Source: an uncultured archaeon (lineage in GTDB: Archaea > Asgardarchaeota > Thorarchaeia > Thorarchaeales > Thorarchaeaceae). Taken from it: a DNA stretch of 12,276 nucleotides. Below, in pieces: positions 2,399 through 12,276 of this stretch. The notes under the pieces are model-generated. The model made no database searches and was not told the DNA's origin. It saw only the letters and a list, made by a program, of their open reading frames with translations. The translations under genes and the position numbers were made by a program. How positions within the stretch are numbered: the stretch's first letter is position 1; each line of letters opens with the position of its first letter. Location: the NCBI GenBank assembly GCA_964590575.1, contig CAZPWM010000040.1:1-12276 (forward strand), in the 5' to 3' direction.

Positions 2399-3165
2399 GT
2401 AATGATTACTCAAGCACTGAAATGATGGCAATAGCCTGTTCTCGGAGAATTAAGAATGACGATATCGTCTTTTGCGGCACTGGACTCCCGATGCTAGCAG
2501 CAGTGACTGCAAAAATGACTCATGCCCCGGATTGCGTCATTTTTTTTGAAACTGGTGCAATGGATCCAGCTCTGCTCGAGATTCCGTTAACCGTTGCAGA
2601 CCCCCGTGTGATGTACAGAGCATCACACAATGGAGGTCTCGTCGATGCATTCTCCTATATGCAGAATCAACGAACAGGTCCCGCGGTTCTGGGAATTCTT
2701 TCAGGGGCACAAATTGACATCTATGGAAATCTAAACAGCACGCTGATTGGTAATTATGATAAACCAGCAGTACGTCTTCCAGGCAGTGGAGGAGCATGTG
2801 ATGTTGCTACTGCCGTTGGACGGACTCTGATATTCATGAGGCATGAAGATAGGAGGTTTGTTGAGCAGCTTGATTATCTGACTAGTCCAGGTTGGCTCTC
2901 TGGTGGTGACTCCAGAAAGCAGGCGGGTCTTCCGGGAGGAGGCCCTGAGGGCGTTATCACATCTCTAGGTGTGCTCTCATTTGATGAAGTGACCAAGAGA
3001 ATGTACCTCGAAAGCTACTATGATTTCACGGCACCAAAAGAAATCCAAGATAATACAGGTTTCACTTTGGATACTTCTCGTTCCAAACCTGAACCTCCAC
3101 CATCACCCCATGAATTGGAAATACTGAGAGAGCATGTTGATCCCATGCGGCTCATCCTTCAGTAA
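2395..3165 (+). CDS. Family I CoA-transferase subunit B (GctB-like)
   Basis: Motifs VFCGTGLP, IFFETG (Glu52, matching the catalytic glutamate position of GctB), GAQIDIYGNLN and LPGSGGA. ATGA overlap with subunit A and an AGGAGG SD at 2381-2386. Confidence 0.9.
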   Translation: MSNDYSSTEMMAIACSRRIKNDDIVFCGTGLPMLAAVTAKMTHAPDCVIFFETGAMDPALLEIPLTVADPRVMYRASHNGGLVDAFSYMQNQRTGPAVLGILSGAQIDIYGNLNSTLIGNYDKPAVRLPGSGGACDVATAVGRTLIFMRHEDRRFVEQLDYLTSPGWLSGGDSRKQAGLPGGGPEGVITSLGVLSFDEVTKRMYLESYYDFTAPKEIQDNTGFTLDTSRSKPEPPPSPHELEILREHVDPMRLILQ

Positions 3166-3242
3166 TCATGTACATGATTTTATTCAGTCGCAAGATTTAT
3201 GTTCACGAGTACACTCTGTAGTATATCTTCTTGAACATGATT
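3164..3242. promoter_or_regulatory. Putative operator array upstream of the RHH regulator
   Basis: Perfect 16-bp palindrome AATCATGTACATGATT (3164-3179), inverted pair ATGTTCA (3199-3205) / TGAACAT (3232-3238), and the half-site ACATGATT repeated at 3235-3242. Confidence 0.45.
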
Positions 3243-3258
3243 CAGGAAGTGCGTGTGC

Positions 3259-4383
3259 ATGGAAGAAAAGATAGAATCGAAGAAGGTAAGTCGTAGCGAT
3301 TCTAGAGGGAAAGGTCCTCGGGTCCATCTCCACACTACGATTTCTGCTTCTACTCGGGATATGTTGAATGAGATCAGTGGTGATTCTGGACGAATCAATG
3401 ATGCTCTTGAGGATGCAGTTCGATACTACATGAAAAGACGAGACCTACCTGACTGTGATACGTGTGAAGATAAAGCAACAATGAAGTTACTATCATCTCT
3501 TGTCACAACTGCAGAGATGGGTCTTACAAGTTCTGAGTTTCTTGAAGCTTTCATGAACCTTGGACATGGCAGTCAATCATCTAATGAGTTCATAGAGAAC
3601 GTGTCAAAGACGGGGATTCAGCACACAAAGCTATTGCGTGGACTTGGCATAATTGAGGGTGACACATGGAAGAATACGTATGAAGCCTTTACTGAACACA
3701 TCAAGCTACTCGAGATAATGGGAATATTGAGGTCAGTAGAATTTTTCCCTGAGAGAAGCACGGTTCTAGCAACTGTGAAGATGTTACGAAATATCCCAGA
3801 AGTTATCATATTATTCCTATTATCAAGTTGGGATGAGGCGGGATACACTGTGGATGTTGAAATCATAGCAGAGAATAAGATCAGTATTCGTTGGTTGAAT
3901 GATAAAGAGTTTAGTATCAAGAAGGAGGGTAGGAATCAACGAATATTCGGTGCGTGGAAAGAGAAGAGAGAAGAACTGTTGATGAAATCTGGCAGGGCAG
4001 GAAATGCAACACTTCCGTCACCACTTCTGGATTGGTTAATCACGCATAAAATTGACGAGCCCATAGGTGAAAAGACACTCATCGAGATACGTAACTCTGG
4101 TCCCCAATACACACCGAATGAACCTAGCGAAGAGTTGCCATTGATAGACCTTGTTCAGAAGGCAACACTCAACATAACATCTACCGGACTTCTAGAGAGA
4201 TGCAGTGTGAAGAAGGATGGCGAAATTGTCAAAGTTCAGCTGGGTGCGAGAAATTCTTCTTTCAAGGATATTGCTATCAAACTCATACTTAACTTACTCG
4301 CCCTAGACAATGTTGAAGAGATATCACGTGAAGAGGGTGAAGCAACAGCAGTCTTGCACTTTGGACGCAGGTTATGGGTGTGA
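3259..4383 (+). CDS. Hypothetical protein; putative transcriptional regulator (N-terminal ribbon-helix-helix, CxxC, two V4R/HNOB-like domains)
   Basis: Long clean ORF (ATG 3259, alternative GTG 3253). The N-terminal RVHLHTTIS-ASTRDMLNEISG-RINDALEDAVRYY has the beta-helix-G-helix pattern of RHH domains and is followed by CDTC. Two similar helix-G-beta-hairpin-helix-beta-hairpin blocks come after that. The domain calls are pattern recognition only. Confidence 0.6.
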   Translation: MEEKIESKKVSRSDSRGKGPRVHLHTTISASTRDMLNEISGDSGRINDALEDAVRYYMKRRDLPDCDTCEDKATMKLLSSLVTTAEMGLTSSEFLEAFMNLGHGSQSSNEFIENVSKTGIQHTKLLRGLGIIEGDTWKNTYEAFTEHIKLLEIMGILRSVEFFPERSTVLATVKMLRNIPEVIILFLLSSWDEAGYTVDVEIIAENKISIRWLNDKEFSIKKEGRNQRIFGAWKEKREELLMKSGRAGNATLPSPLLDWLITHKIDEPIGEKTLIEIRNSGPQYTPNEPSEELPLIDLVQKATLNITSTGLLERCSVKKDGEIVKVQLGARNSSFKDIAIKLILNLLALDNVEEISREEGEATAVLHFGRRLWV

Positions 4384-4405: not shown

Positions 4406-5785
4406 TCAGTATAGGAAGTCAATTCCAAGATCGGTCACTTCTTTCTTCACTTTATAATAAATGTCAAAGCACTCCTTGGATGGCGTACCAGTTAAGGGAT
4501 CGCAGCATTCTTGGAATCGTTTACCCTTTGGTGGATCCGGAATCATATCCTTGAATTTCGGCACTATCTTCTTCACAATATCATTCGCATCACTTCTCTT
4601 TAGTCCTGCTGATGCATAAGCGACTTCAGCAGCGAACATAGGCTCGATAGGTGTCAGATAGTCGAAGTACTTACCTTTTGCAACACCACCGGTTTCAATG
4701 GATGCTCCAGATGAAACACCAGCGATGAACTCCGCAGCAAACTCATGAAGAACCATTTCAGTACATGGTCCTGCTGCTGTGTAGTTATAGTACAAAGCAG
4801 GCACTGTAGTATTTCTGGTCACAGCTTGAGCATATGTGCTTGCTACCCAGATGAGTTCAGGAGATGAACTTGATGTATACTTGACATGAATTGGGAAGCA
4901 TAGAGTCCAAGAGGCCCCATACGTCAAGATTCCTTGAATGTGAAATGCAGCACTTGTGATAGCTGTCCCTTCAGCTCCACCTGCAAAACCCCCATAAATC
5001 GGTCCGTAGATGCCTGCGATTGGCACATTCAGGGACTGGAGAAGTGCAACTCTATTTAGCAAATCTAGGTCTGTCTTCAATTCTGCAAGTTCTGCCACCA
5101 TGTAACCATCTGTTTTTCGAAGACCAAAATCGGGGTGCAGTCCAGAAGCCAAAGCAATAGCAGATTCAGCTGTCCCTATTCCATTCATAATTGGAAGACC
5201 AGGACGACCAGCTCGTCTCAGTGCTTCTCTTCCAAGAACAACGGTTCTAATGGAGCCTTCGATTTCTAAAGGAGACCTAGCACGTATATTCGCGCCATCC
5301 ACAGAAAGTAAACAAGGCGTTGTAATTGCATTGGCTATTGGGATTCTACGAGCATAGTTCTCAACAAGCCTCATGAAGATACTCTCATCGGAAACAGTGA
5401 CTCCTCCAGCGCCTGCAAAAATCCATGGCTTTTGTGAAGACTCAGGCTTCCTCTGTGTCAATGTTCGCTGTTCCATGCCTTCCCCGAACACAGCATGATC
5501 GAATGAAGTCTTGAGTTCATTCCGAACCTCATTCTCTTCGAAAGCAATAACCCGTTCAGTATCTTTACAATAAACACCAACATCACAAATTAAATCAATG
5601 GCAGCATTGAATATTGAATCAGCTAGTCCGTCATCTGATGGCACAAGGATGTCAGGATCGTAACTGATACCGTGTTCCTTGACCAACTCTCGCACTCTTG
5701 GAGAGAAAACTCGCATGTCATACTCTTTCTCAAGCATGGGTTTTCCATCGAGTGCTCTCTTAGTAATCTCAATAATTGGAATCAA
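4406..5785 (-). CDS. mtmB: Monomethylamine:corrinoid methyltransferase (MtmB) family protein, pyrrolysine-free
   Basis: 459 aa, similar in length to MtmB, with family motifs GVYCKDTERV, AGRPG, ELKTDLD, PIYGGFAGG, AGPCTEM.L.E and PKGKRFQEC. No in-frame TAG. TTG start at 5785, preceded by AAGGAGG inside the end of the upstream gene. Confidence 0.88.
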   Translation of the reverse strand: MIPIIEITKRALDGKPMLEKEYDMRVFSPRVRELVKEHGISYDPDILVPSDDGLADSIFNAAIDLICDVGVYCKDTERVIAFEENEVRNELKTSFDHAVFGEGMEQRTLTQRKPESSQKPWIFAGAGGVTVSDESIFMRLVENYARRIPIANAITTPCLLSVDGANIRARSPLEIEGSIRTVVLGREALRRAGRPGLPIMNGIGTAESAIALASGLHPDFGLRKTDGYMVAELAELKTDLDLLNRVALLQSLNVPIAGIYGPIYGGFAGGAEGTAITSAAFHIQGILTYGASWTLCFPIHVKYTSSSSPELIWVASTYAQAVTRNTTVPALYYNYTAAGPCTEMVLHEFAAEFIAGVSSGASIETGGVAKGKYFDYLTPIEPMFAAEVAYASAGLKRSDANDIVKKIVPKFKDMIPDPPKGKRFQECCDPLTGTPSKECFDIYYKVKKEVTDLGIDFLY

Positions 5786-5787
5786 GA

Positions 5788-6435
5788 TTATTTCCTCCTT
5801 TCTTCAATGAGTTTTGTTGCCACTCTCACACCATCAGGAGCGGTTTCAGCAAAACCATCTGCCCCTATCTCATCAGCCCATTCCTGATTTGAAGGCCCAC
5901 CTCCAACCATGACGATGTATTTGTCTCGGTCACCGGTCTGTTCGAGAAAATCAATCACATCTTTCTGACCTCCAATAGTGGATGTCATAAGCGCTGATAC
6001 TGCAATGATGTCAGCATTGATCTTCTCCGCCTCTTCAACAAATTTTGAGGCGGGTACATCAACACCTAAATCACTCACTTCAAATCCATTTGCTACAAGG
6101 AGTGACTTGAAAATGTTCTTGCCAATTTCATGAACATCTCCACGTACAGTACCAACAACCACTCTCCCTTTCTGAGGGACATCCTCACTCTTCAGCTGTG
6201 GTAGAACCACTTCCAGTCCAGCCATCATTGCCTCACCTGATAGCATTAATTCTGTTAGGAAAATCTCCATATTCTCGAATTGCTCACCAACTTTCTGAGC
6301 TCCCTCAGAGATTCCTTTCTCCAGAATATCTATGGGATCAATCCCAGCATCCAATGCTTTCTTTGTCAAACCAGCAACGGCATCAGTGTCACCTTCGATG
6401 ACTGCTTGTTTTAGAGCTTCAATCTCTTTATTCAT
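5788..6435 (-). CDS. Methyltransferase cognate corrinoid (cobalamin-binding) protein, MtmC/MtbC/MttC-like
   Basis: N-terminal cap domain (LKQAVIEGD...IFLTELMLSGEAM) plus the B12-binding motif GDVHEIGKN...VSALMT...VMVGGG. The true start is probably ATG 6435 (MNKEIE, 215 aa) rather than 6570. Confidence 0.93.
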   Translation of the reverse strand: MNKEIEALKQAVIEGDTDAVAGLTKKALDAGIDPIDILEKGISEGAQKVGEQFENMEIFLTELMLSGEAMMAGLEVVLPQLKSEDVPQKGRVVVGTVRGDVHEIGKNIFKSLLVANGFEVSDLGVDVPASKFVEEAEKINADIIAVSALMTSTIGGQKDVIDFLEQTGDRDKYIVMVGGGPSNQEWADEIGADGFAETAPDGVRVATKLIEERRK

Positions 6436-6448
6436 CTTAGACTTACTT

Positions 6449-6522
6449 CCAATTGTAATTGGGTCAAAGTTGTAGTGAACATCTAGAAAAGAACACCCAA
6501 CATATGTGAACATCTTTGTACA
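6449..6522 (-). promoter_or_regulatory. Putative regulatory sites upstream of the corrinoid-mtmB pair
   Basis: Direct repeat GTGAACATCT at 6475-6484 and 6506-6515, TGTACA at 6517-6522, and inverted repeat CCAATT-GT-AATTGG at 6449-6462, all within a 127-bp intergenic gap. Confidence 0.45.
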
Positions 6523-6562
6523 GAGATAGGGGAATAGATCATTGCGCTTCTTCTTCTGCACC

Positions 6563-7549
6563 TTAATCATGACATGCTACTTGACGACCATCAGGCATCG
6601 TTTTCAGTTCAGGCTCTTCCACACTGCACTTGTCCTTTACAAATGGACACCTTGTATGAAATCTGCATCCTGTTGGGATGTTGACTGGGCTCGGAATCTC
6701 CCCCGTGAGCAGGAGCCTCTCTCTCTTTATACCAGTTTCTGGAACAGGTACTACTGAAACTAGTGCTTTCGTGTAGGGGTGACTTGGGTTGTCAATGATA
6801 TCTTTTGTAACTCCAGTTTCAACGACCCTGCCCAGATAGGCGATGGCAATCCTGTCAGTCATTTGCCTAGCTATAGCTAGATTATGTGTTATCAGTACGA
6901 GCGTGATTCCCTTTTTTTCTCTTAGTTCAAGCAATAACTTCAGAATTTGACCTCTCATTGAAACGTCGAGCATTGAAACCGGTTCATCAGCAATGAGAAG
7001 AATCGGGTCAAGGACAAGTGCAGCCGCCACGGCCACACGTTGTCGCTGCCCCCCACTCAGTTCATGTGGTATCCTACCTGCAAATTCCTCAGCGGGAAGA
7101 AGCCCTACATCTTCAAGTGCAGCTAACACACGTTTTTCAATTTCACCAGCTGATGCATAGACATTATGAATCTTAAGAGGTTCTGCGACAATCTCGCCTA
7201 TGGTCATGTTATTGCTCAATGATCCATATGGGTCTTGGAAGATCATCTGAATCCTTCTACGATACTCCTTGAATTCGCCCTCATTCATTGCAGAGATCTT
7301 GTCCCCCTCAAACCAGATCTCTCCCTCAGTTAAGGTTTCCAAGCGCATGATCAATCTCGCAATTGTGGTCTTGCCGCATCCGCTCTCTCCAGCAATGCCA
7401 AAAATCTCGCCTTGCTTGATTTCCAAGTCCACTCCATCAACTGCACGGATGTACGAGTCGGACTTCTCCGAGAGGAGACTTGAGAGGAACCCAGCTCTGA
7501 CTGTAAACCACTTCTTGAGATTACGGGTTTCGAGAATCACATCTGACAT
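6563..7549 (-). CDS. Oligopeptide/dipeptide ABC transporter ATP-binding protein (OppF/DppF-like)
   Basis: Walker A GESGCGKTT, Q-loop FQDP, signature LSGGQ, Walker B LIADEP, H-loop ITH, HPYT, and a C-terminal C-x5-C-x6-C...C motif. TAATG overlap with the upstream ATPase. Confidence 0.95.
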   Translation of the reverse strand: MSDVILETRNLKKWFTVRAGFLSSLLSEKSDSYIRAVDGVDLEIKQGEIFGIAGESGCGKTTIARLIMRLETLTEGEIWFEGDKISAMNEGEFKEYRRRIQMIFQDPYGSLSNNMTIGEIVAEPLKIHNVYASAGEIEKRVLAALEDVGLLPAEEFAGRIPHELSGGQRQRVAVAAALVLDPILLIADEPVSMLDVSMRGQILKLLLELREKKGITLVLITHNLAIARQMTDRIAIAYLGRVVETGVTKDIIDNPSHPYTKALVSVVPVPETGIKRERLLLTGEIPSPVNIPTGCRFHTRCPFVKDKCSVEEPELKTMPDGRQVACHD

Positions 7550-8538
7550 TAGATTTCATGCCTCCTGAAACACGCCACTCTGTGGCCTTCTTCATCCACA
7601 AGCGGTGGTTCCTCTGTTCTGCACCTATCAATCGCATAGTCGCATCTTGGATGAAAGTTGCATCCTATCGGGGGATCAATAAGGTCTGGAGGATTTCCTG
7701 GGATGTAATCAATTTCCTTGTCGGCGAGAATACTTGGAAATGATGCAATGAGTTTCTTTGTGTATGGATGGCCGGGTTCATTGAAGAGGATTTGAACAGA
7801 CGCCTCCTCGACAATTTTCCCGGCGTACATTATGATGACCCTATCACAGGTTTCTGCAAGCACCGATAAGTCATGAGTGATGATTAGTAGTGAGAGACTT
7901 GTCTTTTTCCTGAGCTGTTTGAAGAGATCGAGAATCTGAGCCTGGATCATTACATCCAATGCAGTAGTAGGCTCATCAGCTATTACCAGAGGGGGATGTA
8001 ACACAAGAGAGAGTGCAATCATGAGGCGTTGCTTCATTCCTCCACTTAGTTCGTGTGGATATGCTGTTGCCCTTGACCTCTCTATCCCGACAGATTCTAT
8101 TAATTCAAGTGCAATCTCTTTCGCTTCATTCCTCGATATATTTTCATGGATCAAAATTGTATCAACCATCTGGTCAATCACACGATGAACTGGATTCAGC
8201 GAGTTCATTGCGCCTTGAAAGACCATGGATACTCCTTTCCAACGAAAGGCCTCAATGTCCTTCTTCCTCAAAGTTAGGATATCGGTATTGCCAACAATGG
8301 CCTGCCCACCTTCAACGACTCCCTCCTTCGGTAGAATCTGTAGCAGAGCCATGGCAGTAGTGGTCTTTCCACAGCCACTCTCGCCGCTCAGTCCTACAAA
8401 CTCACCACAACCCACTGTGAAGTCAATGTTATCTACTGCTTTGACTATTCCCTGGGATATGTGGTAGTAGATTTTTAGACCTGATACTATGAGCACTGGT
8501 TGCCCTGCAGGGATTTCTGTTTGGGATGTTTCATTCAT
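7549..8538 (-). CDS. Oligopeptide/dipeptide ABC transporter ATP-binding protein (OppD/DppD-like)
   Basis: Motifs GESGCGKTT, FQGAMNSLNP, LSGGMKQR, IADEPTTALD, ITHD, HPYT and GCNFHPRC..C..C. Confidence 0.95.
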   Translation of the reverse strand: MNETSQTEIPAGQPVLIVSGLKIYYHISQGIVKAVDNIDFTVGCGEFVGLSGESGCGKTTTAMALLQILPKEGVVEGGQAIVGNTDILTLRKKDIEAFRWKGVSMVFQGAMNSLNPVHRVIDQMVDTILIHENISRNEAKEIALELIESVGIERSRATAYPHELSGGMKQRLMIALSLVLHPPLVIADEPTTALDVMIQAQILDLFKQLRKKTSLSLLIITHDLSVLAETCDRVIIMYAGKIVEEASVQILFNEPGHPYTKKLIASFPSILADKEIDYIPGNPPDLIDPPIGCNFHPRCDYAIDRCRTEEPPLVDEEGHRVACFRRHEI

Positions 8539-8546
8539 CTATGTTG

Positions 8547-11270
8547 CTACCTCCTGCGAAGTTTTGGATTGACAATCTCATCCATCGCATATCCCACCAT
8601 TGACACACCTAGGAGCAAAAGTATAACCATGATTCCAGGCGGAAAGAGAAGCCACCATAAATTATTGGACATTGCACCTGCATTAAATGCCAAGTAAAGC
8701 ATTGTACCCCAGCTGATCATAGCGGGGTCTCCGAGTCCAAAGAAGTCCAGGACTACCTCTGATAGAATCGCCCATGCTGTGACAAGAATTGTATTGGCAA
8801 CAACAAGGGGAGCTACAGCAGCCAACACATGTTTGCTCATGATATAGACATTGCTGCCCCCCACTGCTCTAACTCTCTCTATATAGGCCCGTTCCTTTAT
8901 TGTTAATACCTGTCCTCGGACAATACGTGCCGTCGAGGACCATGAGAACAGACCGATCACAAGTATGAGGGTTATAATTGAAGGACCTAGTACTGCAGCT
9001 ATGATGATCATCAATAGAAGGCTAGGGATTACGAAGAAAATGTCTGTAAATCTCATTAAGAAGGAGTCAATAATCCCGCCATAATATCCTGCCACTAGAC
9101 CGACCAACGTGCCTATAATCACGGACATTCCTGTTGCTACAATGCCCACAAGAAGTGTGATTCTCACAGCAATAATCATTTGACTAAATACGTCTCTTCC
9201 CAATTGATCAGTACCCATTAGATGGGTACCCGGAAAATCTAGAGGGAGTGCCCGCGGTGCTTGAAGGATGCCTTGGACGAATAGACCGATACCGACTACA
9301 CCTACAAGAGCAACAACCAATCTTGGAAGATGAGTTTTCAGGTCCTGAATGAAGAAGTTTCGCTTCGCACTCAGAAGACTCCTTAAGATGATAATTCCAG
9401 CAATCACTCCAATTGCTACTGAGAATACCAAAGTTGTCGTATTCTCAAGAGATAATGATTGAACTCCAAAAATACCTGCAATGAAAAGAATAAGTCCTCC
9501 GCCTAAAAGGGTGACGAAAAATCTAGGAATGAGAGGTCTTTTTCTCCGATCCAATATCACCCAGACCTCTCCTGCAGCAATAGCAGATGCTGCGCCTATA
9601 GAAACCATTAGCAGTTGCATTTCTGGCAGCATATCAGGAGGCCGGTACAAGAGTCCTGTAAAGAATGCTTCAGGGTCATACGGAGCCACGATATCACCGA
9701 AAATGGTCATTCCTGCGAACATTGCAACAATCGAAGTTCCCATAATCCCCATTCGTGTTTTGATGAAACGACCGAAGGTATTTCCCAGGCCTTTCCTCTT
9801 CCCGAGAAGGATTCCAAATACCGCTACCAGCAATGCGACTTGTGTTAGGGATGGATGCGCAATTGATGAGAGTGTAAGTTGCAGTGTTGAGTACTCCGCA
9901 TCTGGTAGAAGTGGCGGAGGAAATAATCCCAAACCAGCAAATGCCGCGCCCCAATGCAACGCCCAATTAGGACTGAGAATACCTGTTGCAGCAATAATGC
10001 TCACTGCGATCAAATTGACGACCAATACAACTCCAGAAAATCGAACCAAGAGTTGGGACCGTTTGTTCCTCCATGCATAAATCAAGTTTTCTGGCTTCAA
10101 AGTACCAAATCTGCTTACTATGAAATGCAATACACCCTTTCTCTTTACAATTAGTAAGAGAATGATAAGAGGAATGACCGTGGTTATGCCTATTACTGCC
10201 CATGTAGAAAGAAGTGCGACTATAGCAATCACTGCTAGAGCATAATGAGAGAATGGTCTTGGCGGTTTCTCATCACCAATAGTGAAATCTGCTCCAACTC
10301 TTATTCTAGGGTCAAGATAGAAGTAGATAAAGTCTGCAAGAAGATTGGCAATCACCACAACCACAGTAATCATGAAAAAGGCTGCTTGGAGTAGTGGGTA
10401 GTCCCGGTAATAGACTCCTTCCCAAATTAAGTTACCAATACCAGGATAGGAGAATACAACCTCTGTCTGGAGTGCTCCAGCTACCGAAAATCCTAGCTGC
10501 AACGCGATGACAGTTGTTATTGGTATCATCGCATTTGGCATGGCTTCTTTATTCAGTTGTTCTTTCTCAGTTCGTCCCTTGGCTTTGGCTGTGACCATAT
10601 AATCTTCACTTAAGACGTCTAGCAGAGCGTTTCTCGTGATTAATGCAAATGAACCCAAGATTGCGATAATCAGCACAGTCCATGGAAGCATCAAATGGGA
10701 TATCATATCAGCAGCAAGACCAAAAGGATTACCCGTGAAGTCCATTCCTGGAGTGGTCAATCCCGGTGTTCCTGGAAACCAACCGAGCCCAAATGCGAAG
10801 AACATGATGAAGAACATGGCTAACCAAAATGTGGGGATAGAGTATGTAATCAGCGAAAATAGGAGTCCTAGAAAATCTGCTGGTCGACCTCGACGCCAGG
10901 CGGAGTTCTTGCCTATCCATATTCCGATGACAATCGCAGCGAGAGATGCAGGAACAATCAAAATCAGAGTATTGCCAAGGTGTTCCATGATAATGGGTCC
11001 TACTTCCTCTCTAAAGTGAAAAGACATCCCAAGTTTCAGAGTGAGGAAATTTCCAAGAAAAAGAATGAATTGTTCCCAAAGTGGTTTATCAAGCCCAAAC
11101 TGCTCAATCAATTGGTCCTGTGCAACTTCTGTTAGATTTGGATTTCGAGCAAGGAATGTCATTGGATCGCCCGGAAGAATGTGGAAGATCACGAAATCGA
11201 TTGCAAGTACTATGAAGATTGTGACAATTGCTTGAACTATTCGTTTGATTAGGACGTCTCGTAATGCCAT
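8547..11270 (-). CDS. Fused OppB-OppC (DppB-DppC) ABC permease with extra transmembrane insertions
   Basis: The N-half has LPGDP, GLDKPL, EDYMVTAKAKG (EAA-like loop) and YLDPRIR. The C-half has APYDP, HLMGTDQLGRD, MRFTD, AYIERVRAVG and NPKLR. It is a single uninterrupted ORF. ATG 11270 is preferred over GTG 11291. Confidence 0.9.
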   Translation of the reverse strand: MALRDVLIKRIVQAIVTIFIVLAIDFVIFHILPGDPMTFLARNPNLTEVAQDQLIEQFGLDKPLWEQFILFLGNFLTLKLGMSFHFREEVGPIIMEHLGNTLILIVPASLAAIVIGIWIGKNSAWRRGRPADFLGLLFSLITYSIPTFWLAMFFIMFFAFGLGWFPGTPGLTTPGMDFTGNPFGLAADMISHLMLPWTVLIIAILGSFALITRNALLDVLSEDYMVTAKAKGRTEKEQLNKEAMPNAMIPITTVIALQLGFSVAGALQTEVVFSYPGIGNLIWEGVYYRDYPLLQAAFFMITVVVVIANLLADFIYFYLDPRIRVGADFTIGDEKPPRPFSHYALAVIAIVALLSTWAVIGITTVIPLIILLLIVKRKGVLHFIVSRFGTLKPENLIYAWRNKRSQLLVRFSGVVLVVNLIAVSIIAATGILSPNWALHWGAAFAGLGLFPPPLLPDAEYSTLQLTLSSIAHPSLTQVALLVAVFGILLGKRKGLGNTFGRFIKTRMGIMGTSIVAMFAGMTIFGDIVAPYDPEAFFTGLLYRPPDMLPEMQLLMVSIGAASAIAAGEVWVILDRRKRPLIPRFFVTLLGGGLILFIAGIFGVQSLSLENTTTLVFSVAIGVIAGIIILRSLLSAKRNFFIQDLKTHLPRLVVALVGVVGIGLFVQGILQAPRALPLDFPGTHLMGTDQLGRDVFSQMIIAVRITLLVGIVATGMSVIIGTLVGLVAGYYGGIIDSFLMRFTDIFFVIPSLLLMIIIAAVLGPSIITLILVIGLFSWSSTARIVRGQVLTIKERAYIERVRAVGGSNVYIMSKHVLAAVAPLVVANTILVTAWAILSEVVLDFFGLGDPAMISWGTMLYLAFNAGAMSNNLWWLLFPPGIMVILLLLGVSMVGYAMDEIVNPKLRRR

Positions 11271-11301
11271 ACTTACCCACTCTGATTTCACTTTGGATTA
11301 T

Positions 11302-11366: not shown

Positions 11367-12276
11367 CTATTTTTTCTTGACGAAATACACCACAACAATC
11401 AGTACCACTACACCTATTCCTCCAACAGCTACGAGTAGTAGTGGATCAATTAATGGGGGTGGTGGTAGTGTTGTAGTCGTTGTTGTTGTAGTCGCAACTG
11501 GCACGTCGACCTCTAGCCATGAATCGATGTTCCACATTGACAGGATGCCGCTTTGCCAGTCTGTGTGAGTGAATGTCCAGGCATCATTTCTGTAAAGTTC
11601 GATGTCATTGTACTCAACAAGAACAATGATACTAGAATCATCGTACATTATCTGCTGGAACTCATCACAAAGAGCTGCCCTAGTTACATCATTGGTGGTC
11701 AGTTGTTGTTCCTTGTATATCTCATCAACCCTTGTGATGTTCACACCATTGGGGTTGATCCAGCTGTCACTGGTCATGTATTGCATCATGCTATTTGGAT
11801 CTGCAATCTGGCTGTAGAAGGTCAGAGCTATGTCAAAGTCCCAAACCTCTGTAGCGGTCTGAGCAATGAAGGTTGTTGTTTCAAGAGGAGTTGTTGAGAT
11901 ATCAAATCCTGCAGCCTCAAGATAAGCGCTAACTAGAGACACAATTGTGAAGTCTGTTGGAACACCAGTCACATACTTGATGTTGAAGGTTAGTGTCTCA
12001 ACAGTTCCAGCTACGTTTTTCTCATAGACACCTGCCAGATTCTCAGCCCATCCTGCAGCTTCAAGAGTTGCCCTAGCTGCAGCTGCCCCGGGGGTATAGG
12101 TCACAAGAGCGTCATTATACCACTTGAGCTCAGAATGGATTAGTGAGTCCGCTGCATTTGCATGTCCGAGATATGCAACCTCAGCAATTTGCGCCTTGTC
12201 AATGGCCTGATTCATTGCCTTTCTCACTTCTGGTTGACGAAGTGCATTAGTCTTATGTGTACGAGAAGCATATTCT
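11367..12276 (-). CDS. ABC transporter substrate-binding protein, family 5 (OppA/DppA-like); 5' part lies outside the window
   Basis: The frame is open to the window edge (EYASRTHKTNALRQPEVRKAMNQAIDK...). It contains ARATLEAAGW and RAALCDEFQQIMYDD, and ends with a Thr-rich linker, PPPP, a hydrophobic helix and KKK (archaeal-type C-terminal membrane anchor). Confidence 0.9.
   Translation of the reverse strand, partial: EYASRTHKTNALRQPEVRKAMNQAIDKAQIAEVAYLGHANAADSLIHSELKWYNDALVTYTPGAAAARATLEAAGWAENLAGVYEKNVAGTVETLTFNIKYVTGVPTDFTIVSLVSAYLEAAGFDISTTPLETTTFIAQTATEVWDFDIALTFYSQIADPNSMMQYMTSDSWINPNGVNITRVDEIYKEQQLTTNDVTRAALCDEFQQIMYDDSSIIVLVEYNDIELYRNDAWTFTHTDWQSGILSMWNIDSWLEVDVPVATTTTTTTTLPPPPLIDPLLLVAVGGIGVVVLIVVVYFVKKK
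11456..11493 (-). repeat. Low-complexity poly-Thr/Pro coding stretch (TTTTTTTTLPPPP linker)
   Basis: Run of ACN and CCN codons in the C-terminus of the binding protein. Confidence 0.8.

Follow-up and report, generated by a model that had tools for sequence, protein, structure and literature searches.

A 25,218-base scaffold (C40) belongs to a 3.40-Mb, 91%-complete metagenome-assembled genome (MAG) of an uncultured archaeon of the Thorarchaeaceae. Bases 1 to 12,276 of C40, referred to here as the window, carry a gene on the reverse strand (4406..5785) for a 459-residue homologue of MtmB, the monomethylamine (MMA):corrinoid methyltransferase. The protein lacks pyrrolysine (Pyl), the residue on which MtmB depends. 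We consider it probable that the gene encodes a working, Pyl-independent substrate:corrinoid methyltransferase (MT1) with the MtmB fold, which acts on a methyl donor other than MMA. An initial annotation of the window had already read the gene as a corrinoid methyltransferase for a different donor. This proposal fits the predicted fold, a ratio of non-synonymous to synonymous substitution rates (dN/dS) of about 0.03, the Met-Asn pair found in place of Pyl, a coupled corrinoid protein, and a genome in which PylS and PylB were not found; the catalytic activity itself is what we infer from these features.

The open reading frame runs for 459 codons from a TTG start to a terminal stop, which is the only one it contains. 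The start is supported by orthologues, which begin at the identical position with either ATG or TTG. MtmB (PF05369) is the sole Pfam family found in the protein, and its score of 325.8 bits against a cut-off of 25, with profile positions 3-450 of 450 covered, means that the assignment is not due to chance. The MTTB profile (PF06253) is unmatched, and a scan against the NCBIfam profiles returned no matching model. In a phmmer search of the PDB, residues 9-457 align with residues 14-458 of Methanosarcina barkeri MtmB (1L2Q/1NTH, 1TV2; E 1.4e-64). An AlphaFold2 model, built with 23 homologues as input, has a mean predicted local distance difference test score (pLDDT) of 91.3, and Foldseek superposes it on 1TV2/1L2Q/1NTH with TM-scores of 0.95/0.96 and a root-mean-square deviation of 1.4 Å over 455 columns, at 30% identity. 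The next Foldseek matches, MttB and MtgB, reach TM-scores of merely 0.47-0.56. The description of the gene as a full-length, uninterrupted MtmB homologue is therefore borne out, both by the near full-length match to the Pfam profile and the M. barkeri structure and by the intact frame. It is the sole MtmB-family gene in the host genome. The closest relatives of the protein are 87-98% identical to it; the named ones belong to MAGs labelled Candidatus Thorarchaeota, Sifarchaeia, Hermodarchaeota or 'Promethearchaeota', and NCBI and JGI give them the automatic annotation monomethylamine:corrinoid methyltransferase.

The residues that stand in place of Pyl can be located to the codon (5183..5188, reverse strand). 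In the region of the peptide AGRPGLPIMNGIGTAESA, which begins at residue 192, phmmer sets the Pyl residue of M. barkeri MtmB (written X in 1L2Q and K in 1TV2) opposite Met200, encoded by ATG at 5188-5186 and followed by Asn201, encoded by AAT at 5185-5183. A MAFFT alignment with 21 TAG-containing MtmB genes leads to the same residue, its TAG column coinciding with Met200. Met200 thus replaces Pyl202 of the M. barkeri enzyme: UAG is absent from this position, which is occupied by ATG, and no internal stop occurs in the window gene. The initial annotation had assigned Met200 and Asn201 to the Pyl202 position, with no TAG, and the phmmer alignment, the codon positions and the MAFFT alignment agree with it; neither alignment puts Pyl elsewhere. 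Its additional claim of a one-residue insertion holds as well, with one nuance. The extra residue is present, and MAFFT places it 2-3 positions downstream of the Pyl column, after Asn201-Gly202, and not at the Pyl site, whose position is unaffected. As a control for the alignment register we searched 301 Thermoplasmatota genomes, 35 of which have an MtmB match. MtmB with an in-frame TAG accounts for 66 matches in 34 of these 35 genomes (685-809 bits, one TAG per copy), and the motif GRPG-x-G-x-TAG-GPET, present in 44 of the 44 TAG-containing copies read, is missing from the window protein.

The gene is under strong purifying selection. Nei-Gojobori estimates of dN/dS are 0.032 against a 95% identical orthologue (L008) and 0.029 against a second (L009); for seven further orthologues dS is saturated and dN lies at 0.075-0.23. 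Among 88 homologous gene copies from 77 genome loci, not one contains an internal stop. Relaxed selection, which had been looked for as the sign of a degenerating gene, was thus not found. These loci belong to a broad range of hosts: Thorarchaeota-type Asgard archaea, Bathyarchaeia, Methanomethylicia, Thermoplasmata, Chloroflexi, Aminicenantes, Thermoleophilia and Desulfobacterales. The replacement residues are themselves conserved, with neither Met200 nor Asn201 varying across 23 aligned sequences of identities as low as 45%, and the Met-Asn pair retained in 77 of the 88 copies. The 11 exceptions comprise Met-Ser (one), Val-Asn, Ala-Asn, Gln-Asn and Leu-Asn (one each), His-Asn (two) and Leu-Gln accompanied by a deletion (four).

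A comparison of Pyl and non-Pyl MtmB proteins sets the window clade well apart from the Pyl enzymes. We built a maximum-likelihood tree of 86 rows (a chosen subset of the 88 copies, together with proteins from homologue searches that used the window protein and a Borrarchaeum protein of the His-Asn type as queries) by an IQ-TREE quick search under LG+G4, in which branch support is given by SH-aLRT only. The 21 Pyl rows all fall on the same side of a branch with a support of 97. A branch with a support of 100 and a length of 0.8 divides these 21 rows, plus one row with Phe at the Pyl site, from the remaining 64 non-Pyl rows. The window protein sits across this branch from the Pyl rows, in a 7-row Thorarchaeota clade (support 100) within a 39-row clade (support 99) that holds 34 Met-Asn rows. 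Its identity to the Pyl rows is 29-32%, and to the His-Asn rows 34-41%. A comparison of the 34 Met-Asn rows with the 21 Pyl rows shows 53 positions at which one and the same residue is fixed in both groups and 13 at which each group has fixed a different one, positions 200 and 201 included. Given as Met-Asn/Pyl, these are A126/P, T155/V, P157/G, R180/A, M200/Pyl, N201/G, G273/E, F297/G, Q320/A, E364/S, G367/A, P379/G and P382/A.

The wider family is large and varied at this site. An exhaustive search of 1.84 billion cluster representatives returned 994 proteins at E <=0.001 and 222 at E <=1e-30. Among the 131 full-length proteins of the best 150 cluster representatives, we counted more than 70 kinds of residue pair at the Pyl site, which suggests that the family comprises many chemistries. 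The representatives nearest the window protein keep Asn201 and have Leu, Ala, Ile, Gln, Phe, Val or His at residue 200. Closer to home, 51 of 400 Asgard genomes (the host's own included) contain a match to the window protein; orthologues of at least 67% identity are confined to the host's own family, where they occur in 16 of 85 other genomes, and all other Asgard matches are at most 43% identical.

Other Pyl-free forms were encountered in the course of these searches. The row with Phe at the Pyl site comes from a Thermoplasmatota genome (G276; L131:6283-7620, reverse strand) that also has two TAG-containing MtmB genes. This copy is stop-free and has a loop of Pyl-type length; it is the non-Pyl row nearest the Pyl clade, and its relatives are labelled Methanomethylophilaceae and Methanomassiliicoccaceae. 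A separate Pyl-free class with His-Asn at the site (G-F-H-N) occurs in Heimdall-, Hod- and Borrarchaeum-type Asgard archaea (L082, L093, L097, L100 and P0123-P0186), frequently with 2-3 copies per genome, and is nearer to M. barkeri MtmB than the window protein is (270.8 vs 221.8 bits).

A corrinoid protein that would serve as the methyl acceptor is encoded next to the methyltransferase. The gene for this cognate protein (5788..6570, reverse strand) specifies B12-binding_2 and B12-binding domains and, at residue 145, the sequence DVHEIG, an example of the His-ligand motif DxHxxG; its true start is probably Met46. Compared with the NCBIfam models it is MtgC/MtbC-like at scores below the cut-offs, the best being MtgC with 218.6 bits against a cut-off of 310. 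Its stop codon falls 2 nt before the start of the MtmB homologue, GGAGG is found 8-12 nt upstream of that start, and the MtmB homologue is translationally coupled to the corrinoid-protein gene. A corrinoid-protein gene is present in 59 of the 77 related loci, mostly immediately upstream. The operon as a whole is also conserved: the order solute-binding protein, fused permease, two ATPases, corrinoid protein, MtmB homologue recurs in six Thorarchaeota-clade loci (L008-L010, L013, L014 and L020), and a further locus, L011, is truncated and has the operon from the permease onward.

The remainder of the genome is consistent with an enzyme that functions without Pyl. Its best match to PylS scores 22.3 bits against a cut-off of 178, and PylB has no match in the genome. 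No tRNA-CUA was found by aragorn, which is weak evidence because the program found just 16 tRNAs in this 91%-complete MAG. TAG terminates 475 of the 1,391 long open frames of the genome, and the one MttB-family (MTTB) gene, on another contig, is stop-free. Judged by sequence, the parts of a three-component system (MT1, corrinoid protein, candidate second methyltransferases and RamA-type activators) are all encoded here. The genome has two RACo/RamA-type activator genes, three MtrH homologues, one gene for a pterin-binding methyltransferase and one for the acetyl-CoA synthase subunit CdhC. Another contig (C32:1929-4800; L089) encodes a URO-D-type methyltransferase, a corrinoid protein and then a divergent second URO-D-type methyltransferase, and these URO-D-type proteins are candidates for the second methyltransferase.

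In MtmB, Pyl forms a charged adduct with the amine. In the structure, a strand within the barrel anchors Pyl202 (PMC9842639), whose described role is to activate methylamine substrates for methyl transfer (PMC9842639, PMC13044021). The donor of the window enzyme is most likely not MMA, and would instead carry a methyl group that is already activated, because Pyl, the activator of MMA's poor leaving group, is absent. The initial annotation held that no substrate had been established for any Pyl-free MtmB homologue, a statement that is now outdated. Kashyap et al. 2026 (PMC13044021) describe a non-Pyl MtmB homologue from Methanococcoides methylutens Q3c, MtqB. It methylated cob(I)alamin at 37 nmol/min/mg when given tetramethylammonium, at 42 with choline and weakly, at 11, with MMA, and not with trimethylamine or glycine betaine. 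By their account, no function had been shown for a non-Pyl MtmB before. In the tree that they present, of 1,061 sequences, the MtqB clade lies near the Pyl-encoding MtmBs (Figure 6 legend), and the remainder is of unknown function. Non-Pyl MtmBs are reported there from Asgard archaea and proteobacteria, and the class as such, Asgard members included, is thus already published (PMC13044021). A full-text literature search on non-Pyl MtmB and MtqB found only the papers of Kashyap et al. and Holland et al. for the former, no other relevant characterisation for the latter, and no reported substrate for the Met-Asn clade.

By analogy, the most plausible donor is an N-methyl compound that is quaternary or carries a charge in some other way. 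According to the available text of the same paper, all characterised Pyl-free MttB-type enzymes use quaternary amines, as does MtqB (PMC13044021). The nitrogen of a quaternary amine needs no Pyl-type activation, and every Pyl-free relative of known substrate, in either fold, uses such an amine. Somewhat under half of the confidence that we place in the Pyl-independent methyltransferase as a whole goes to this class of donor, a share that is a personal estimate and not a computed figure.

We can now propose a scheme for the pathway. An imported methylated compound would bind in the TIM-barrel cavity, where Met200-Asn201 replace Pyl202-Gly, and its methyl group would be handed to Co(I) of the corrinoid protein whose gene directly precedes that of the methyltransferase, transfer presumably running in this direction. 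A second methyltransferase of the MtrH, URO-D or pterin-binding type, encoded elsewhere, would unload methyl-Co(III) onto a one-carbon (C1) carrier that would in turn feed acetyl-CoA synthase, and the RamA-type activators would re-reduce Co(II). The operon's Opp-type ATP-binding cassette (ABC) importer would supply the donor, or a peptide-like precursor of it; an Opp-like ABC system reportedly takes up proline betaine in S. meliloti (Alloing 2006).

Several observations weigh against this scheme. The substrate class is argued solely by analogy, and the operon's solute-binding protein yields no clue to its ligand, its best PDB matches being weak (E 4e-16 or worse) and spread over peptide, nickel and opine binders. 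MtqB retains some MMA activity without Pyl (11 vs 37-42 nmol/min/mg; PMC13044021). No second methyltransferase is found in the operon, nor within 7 kb of the gene in relatives, and the acceptor is for this reason a guess. The module is accessory and patchy, since orthologues of at least 67% identity occur in just 16 of 85 same-family genomes. On the other side stands a weak hint that the gene is expressed in sediment. Near-identical DNA is found in salt-marsh, freshwater-sediment and other sediment metagenomes, and metatranscriptome contigs cover 4550-4714, 4689-4853 and 4969-5119 of the gene in one library and 5174-5324, which spans codons 200-201, in a second library from another study, each with 1-4 mismatches per 151-165 nt. 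We treat these as a hint because assembled RNA-library contigs may include DNA carry-over; parts of the window without such contigs carry no information.

One alternative is that the protein is a functional orthologue of MtqB and hence a tetramethylammonium/choline:corrinoid methyltransferase. MtqB is the sole characterised Pyl-free MtmB homologue, from a class whose reported members include Asgard archaea and proteobacteria; the proteome table of the MtqB paper contains an abundant 'monomethylamine:corrinoid methyltransferase' of 459 aa, the same length as the window protein; and the MtqB pocket is described as having a conserved methionine (PMC13044021), where the window protein has Met at its Pyl site. 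Nonetheless, the MtqB clade is described as lying near the Pyl-MtmBs, whereas the window clade falls beyond the fully supported branch of length 0.8 and the window protein is just 29-32% identical to the Pyl rows. Among the 120 best matches to each of three queries (the window protein, the Borrarchaeum His-Asn type and the Phe type), no protein bears a Methanococcoides or Methanosarcina name, most of the rows being nameless, and the window transporter is of the Opp type rather than a choline- or betaine-type carrier. On balance we think such orthology unlikely. Public annotation suggests instead a Pyl-independent monomethylamine:corrinoid methyltransferase, the name given to relatives by NCBI and JGI. 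Sun et al. 2021 (PMC9723677) likewise read the Sifarchaeia MtmB as an MMA enzyme, and the low MMA activity of MtqB shows that some turnover can occur without Pyl (PMC13044021). This reading strikes us as distinctly improbable: the names stem from automatic annotation and not from tests, and Pyl is described as required to activate MMA (PMC9842639, PMC13044021). Furthermore, GRPG-x-G-x-TAG-GPET is found in all 21 bona fide Pyl rows and not in the window protein, 13 positions are fixed differently between the Met-Asn and Pyl clades, and an ATP-driven importer of the Opp type would be an odd supply route for a small amine.

A donor that is not an amine at all (an S-methyl or O-methyl compound), or a reaction that runs in the reverse, biosynthetic direction, would accord with the more than 70 Pyl-site residue pairs in the 131 full-length representatives (from the best 150). 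It would also accord with the report by Holland et al. 2022 (PMC9768040) that a non-Pyl MtmB-superfamily protein is the most induced on dichloromethane in 'Ca. Formimonas warabiya'. Yet all characterised members of the MtmB and MttB folds are said to use N-methyl donors (PMC13044021), and the genes that recur beside members of the Met-Asn clade are those of nitrogen metabolism (of 77 loci, MttB in 18, class-III aminotransferases in 9, M20 in 7 and DDAH-like genes in 5); we give this option little credence. A further reading takes the gene for the remnant of a Pyl enzyme, decaying or no longer catalytic, and draws on the loss of the catalytic Pyl and on the patchy distribution within the family (16 of 85 genomes). 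It is contradicted by the dN/dS of about 0.03 and by 88 stop-free copies out of 88, and it sits poorly with the 53 invariant positions held in common with the Pyl enzymes and with the tight coupling to the corrinoid-protein gene, so that we find it barely credible.

If the gene does encode a Pyl-independent methyltransferase for a donor other than MMA, a broader proposal can be entertained, which we hold tentatively and at low confidence. The Met-Asn subfamily could form a widespread class of its own, made up of anaerobic enzymes that demethylate nitrogen compounds derived from imported peptides or peptide-like solutes, with links in Thorarchaeota to an Opp-type importer and amidohydrolases and an outlet into the Wood-Ljungdahl pathway. 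Trimethyl-lysine, betaines and N-methyl amino acids, N-terminally methylated ones among them, would then be among the candidate donors. If this is true, non-methanogenic Asgard archaea would have a form of methylotrophy without biochemical precedent. A peptide-derived or betaine-type donor would show how sediment Asgard archaea, and the other uncultured lineages with Met-Asn proteins, draw methyl groups into acetogenesis, and it would correct a widespread 'monomethylamine methyltransferase' mis-annotation that inflates metagenome estimates of methylamine use. About a thousand Pyl-free MtmB homologues are on record and one of them has a known substrate. The operon offers an unusually direct route to a second, because its co-transcribed solute-binding protein can be screened for ligands without anaerobic enzymology.

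Comparison with the closest known systems brings out what is shared and what is particular to the window. MtqB/MtqC resembles it in its Pyl-free MtmB family, its own adjacent corrinoid protein, and a RamA-type activator and second methyltransferase that are encoded elsewhere. Unlike the window's Met-Asn clade, MtqB is reported near the Pyl-MtmBs, a placement taken from the published description only; in addition, the window host is a non-methanogenic Asgard archaeon and its operon includes an Opp-type ABC importer. M. barkeri MtmB1/MtmC shares the whole-length TIM-barrel (TM-score 0.95) and the 53 positions invariant in both clades, and differs in having Pyl202-Gly where the window protein has Met200-Asn201, in lacking the extra residue in the loop that follows, and in its overall sequence (30% identity). 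In the window operon the corrinoid-protein gene precedes the methyltransferase gene; the Methanosarcina order, mtmCB, is one that we take to place the corrinoid-protein gene first as well. With MtgB, MtcB, MtpB and MtyB the window system has in common that the loss of Pyl would go with donors whose nitrogen is already quaternary, as well as corrinoid proteins of the same family; those enzymes are nonetheless members of another protein family (PF06253), with Foldseek TM-scores of 0.47-0.56 to MttB and MtgB. The last comparison is with the Sifarchaeia and other Asgard MtmB proteins treated by Sun et al. 2021 (PMC9723677), and one protein that is 89% identical to the window's is labelled Ca. Sifarchaeia. 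In that paper MtmB is listed in Sifarchaeia, the only in-frame UAG is said to be carried by MtbB, and the genes, as here without an in-frame UAG, are read as methyl use that feeds acetogenesis. It differs in treating the Sifarchaeia MtmB as a monomethylamine enzyme, and the missing Pyl is not discussed in the part of the text available.

A side observation bears on MtqB itself. One metagenomic cluster representative (P0440, 466 aa, 35% identical to the window protein) has Gly-Val-Met-Cys-Pro at the Pyl site and a loop of Pyl-type length. It may be a candidate of the MtqB type, because a conserved Met and Cys are mentioned for MtqB (PMC13044021). With P0440 as query, an Atlas search yielded generic MtmB clusters only.

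The importer genes lie upstream of the corrinoid protein on the same strand. Two Opp/Dpp-type ABC ATPases (6563-7549 and 7549-8538, reverse strand), each with ABC_tran and oligo_HPY domains, are kept at 63-95% identity in the Thorarchaeota-clade loci. They are followed in the upstream direction by a fused OppB-OppC-type permease of 914 aa (8547..11291, reverse strand), in which BPD_transp_1 occurs twice together with OppC_N and a long linker spans residues 332-505; a fused form of ~910 aa occurs in 6 related loci. The 3' part of a gene for a family-5 solute-binding protein (SBP_bac_5; 11367..12276, reverse strand) completes the set, and this gene extends to about C40:13309, past the end of the window. 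What looks like a frameshift in it is a scaffold gap: a run of 10 N, standing in for ~29 bases, directly follows base 12276 (L088:1220-1340). A complete copy of the gene occurs at 2345-4312 of L008, the locus of the 95% identical orthologue. Weaker matches to the importer are found in a few bacterial loci.

Downstream of the MtmB homologue, and convergent with it, lies a gene for a 376-aa protein (3253..4383, forward strand) that is a possible regulator. No Pfam family matches this protein, even at E 10, and its conservation is restricted to one clade: of the 77 loci, just 9, all of the Thorarchaeota clade, have an orthologue (40-84% identity) beside the MtmB homologue. It has an invariant N-terminal RVHLHTTIS...GR.ND segment, and to the eye its N-terminus looks ribbon-helix-helix-like. 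The AlphaFold2 model is weak (pLDDT 67.8), with faint matches to V4R, Bet3/TRAPPC3, H-NOX and the DmpR sensor domain. The protein could regulate the operon in response to a ligand. Palindromic sites centred on TGTACA are found at promoter-like places, at 3164-3177 of the window and near 13340, 13380 (both upstream of the binding-protein gene), 14495 and 16394 of C40; a perfect 14-mer palindrome, ATCATGTACATGAT, lies upstream of the 376-aa gene. The pattern [CG]ATGTACA[TC][GAC] occurs 4 times in the 25-kb scaffold as against 45 times in the 3.4-Mb genome, and similar sites are present 38-81 nt upstream of the binding-protein gene in three of the related loci (L008, L010 and L013). These palindromes may be operators of the island.

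The window also holds a CoA-transferase pair, a polysaccharide-deacetylase/PuuE-like protein and an SDR. The remaining scaffold encodes two M28 peptidases, a class-III aminotransferase, a carbon-nitrogen hydrolase, an M20 deacylase of the ArgE/DapE type and an M24 PepQ-like peptidase. The M24 protein was examined as a possible creatinase; archaeal PepQ is the NCBIfam model that it matches best, with 146 bits where the cut-off is 630, too low a score to assign a function. Within 7 kb of the gene across the 77 loci, the corrinoid protein is the commonest neighbour. MttB-family genes and Opp-type ATPases occur in 18 loci each, saccharopine-dehydrogenase-like genes in 11, class-III aminotransferases in 9, aldehyde:ferredoxin oxidoreductases in 8, M20 peptidases in 7, and M24/creatinase-N and DDAH-like genes in 5 each. 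The proximity of a Met-Asn MtmB to an MttB-family gene in 18 of the 77 loci (L021-L080) hints at the stepwise demethylation of one compound. In five Thermoplasmata loci, the gene next to the MtmB homologue is DDAH/amidinotransferase-like.

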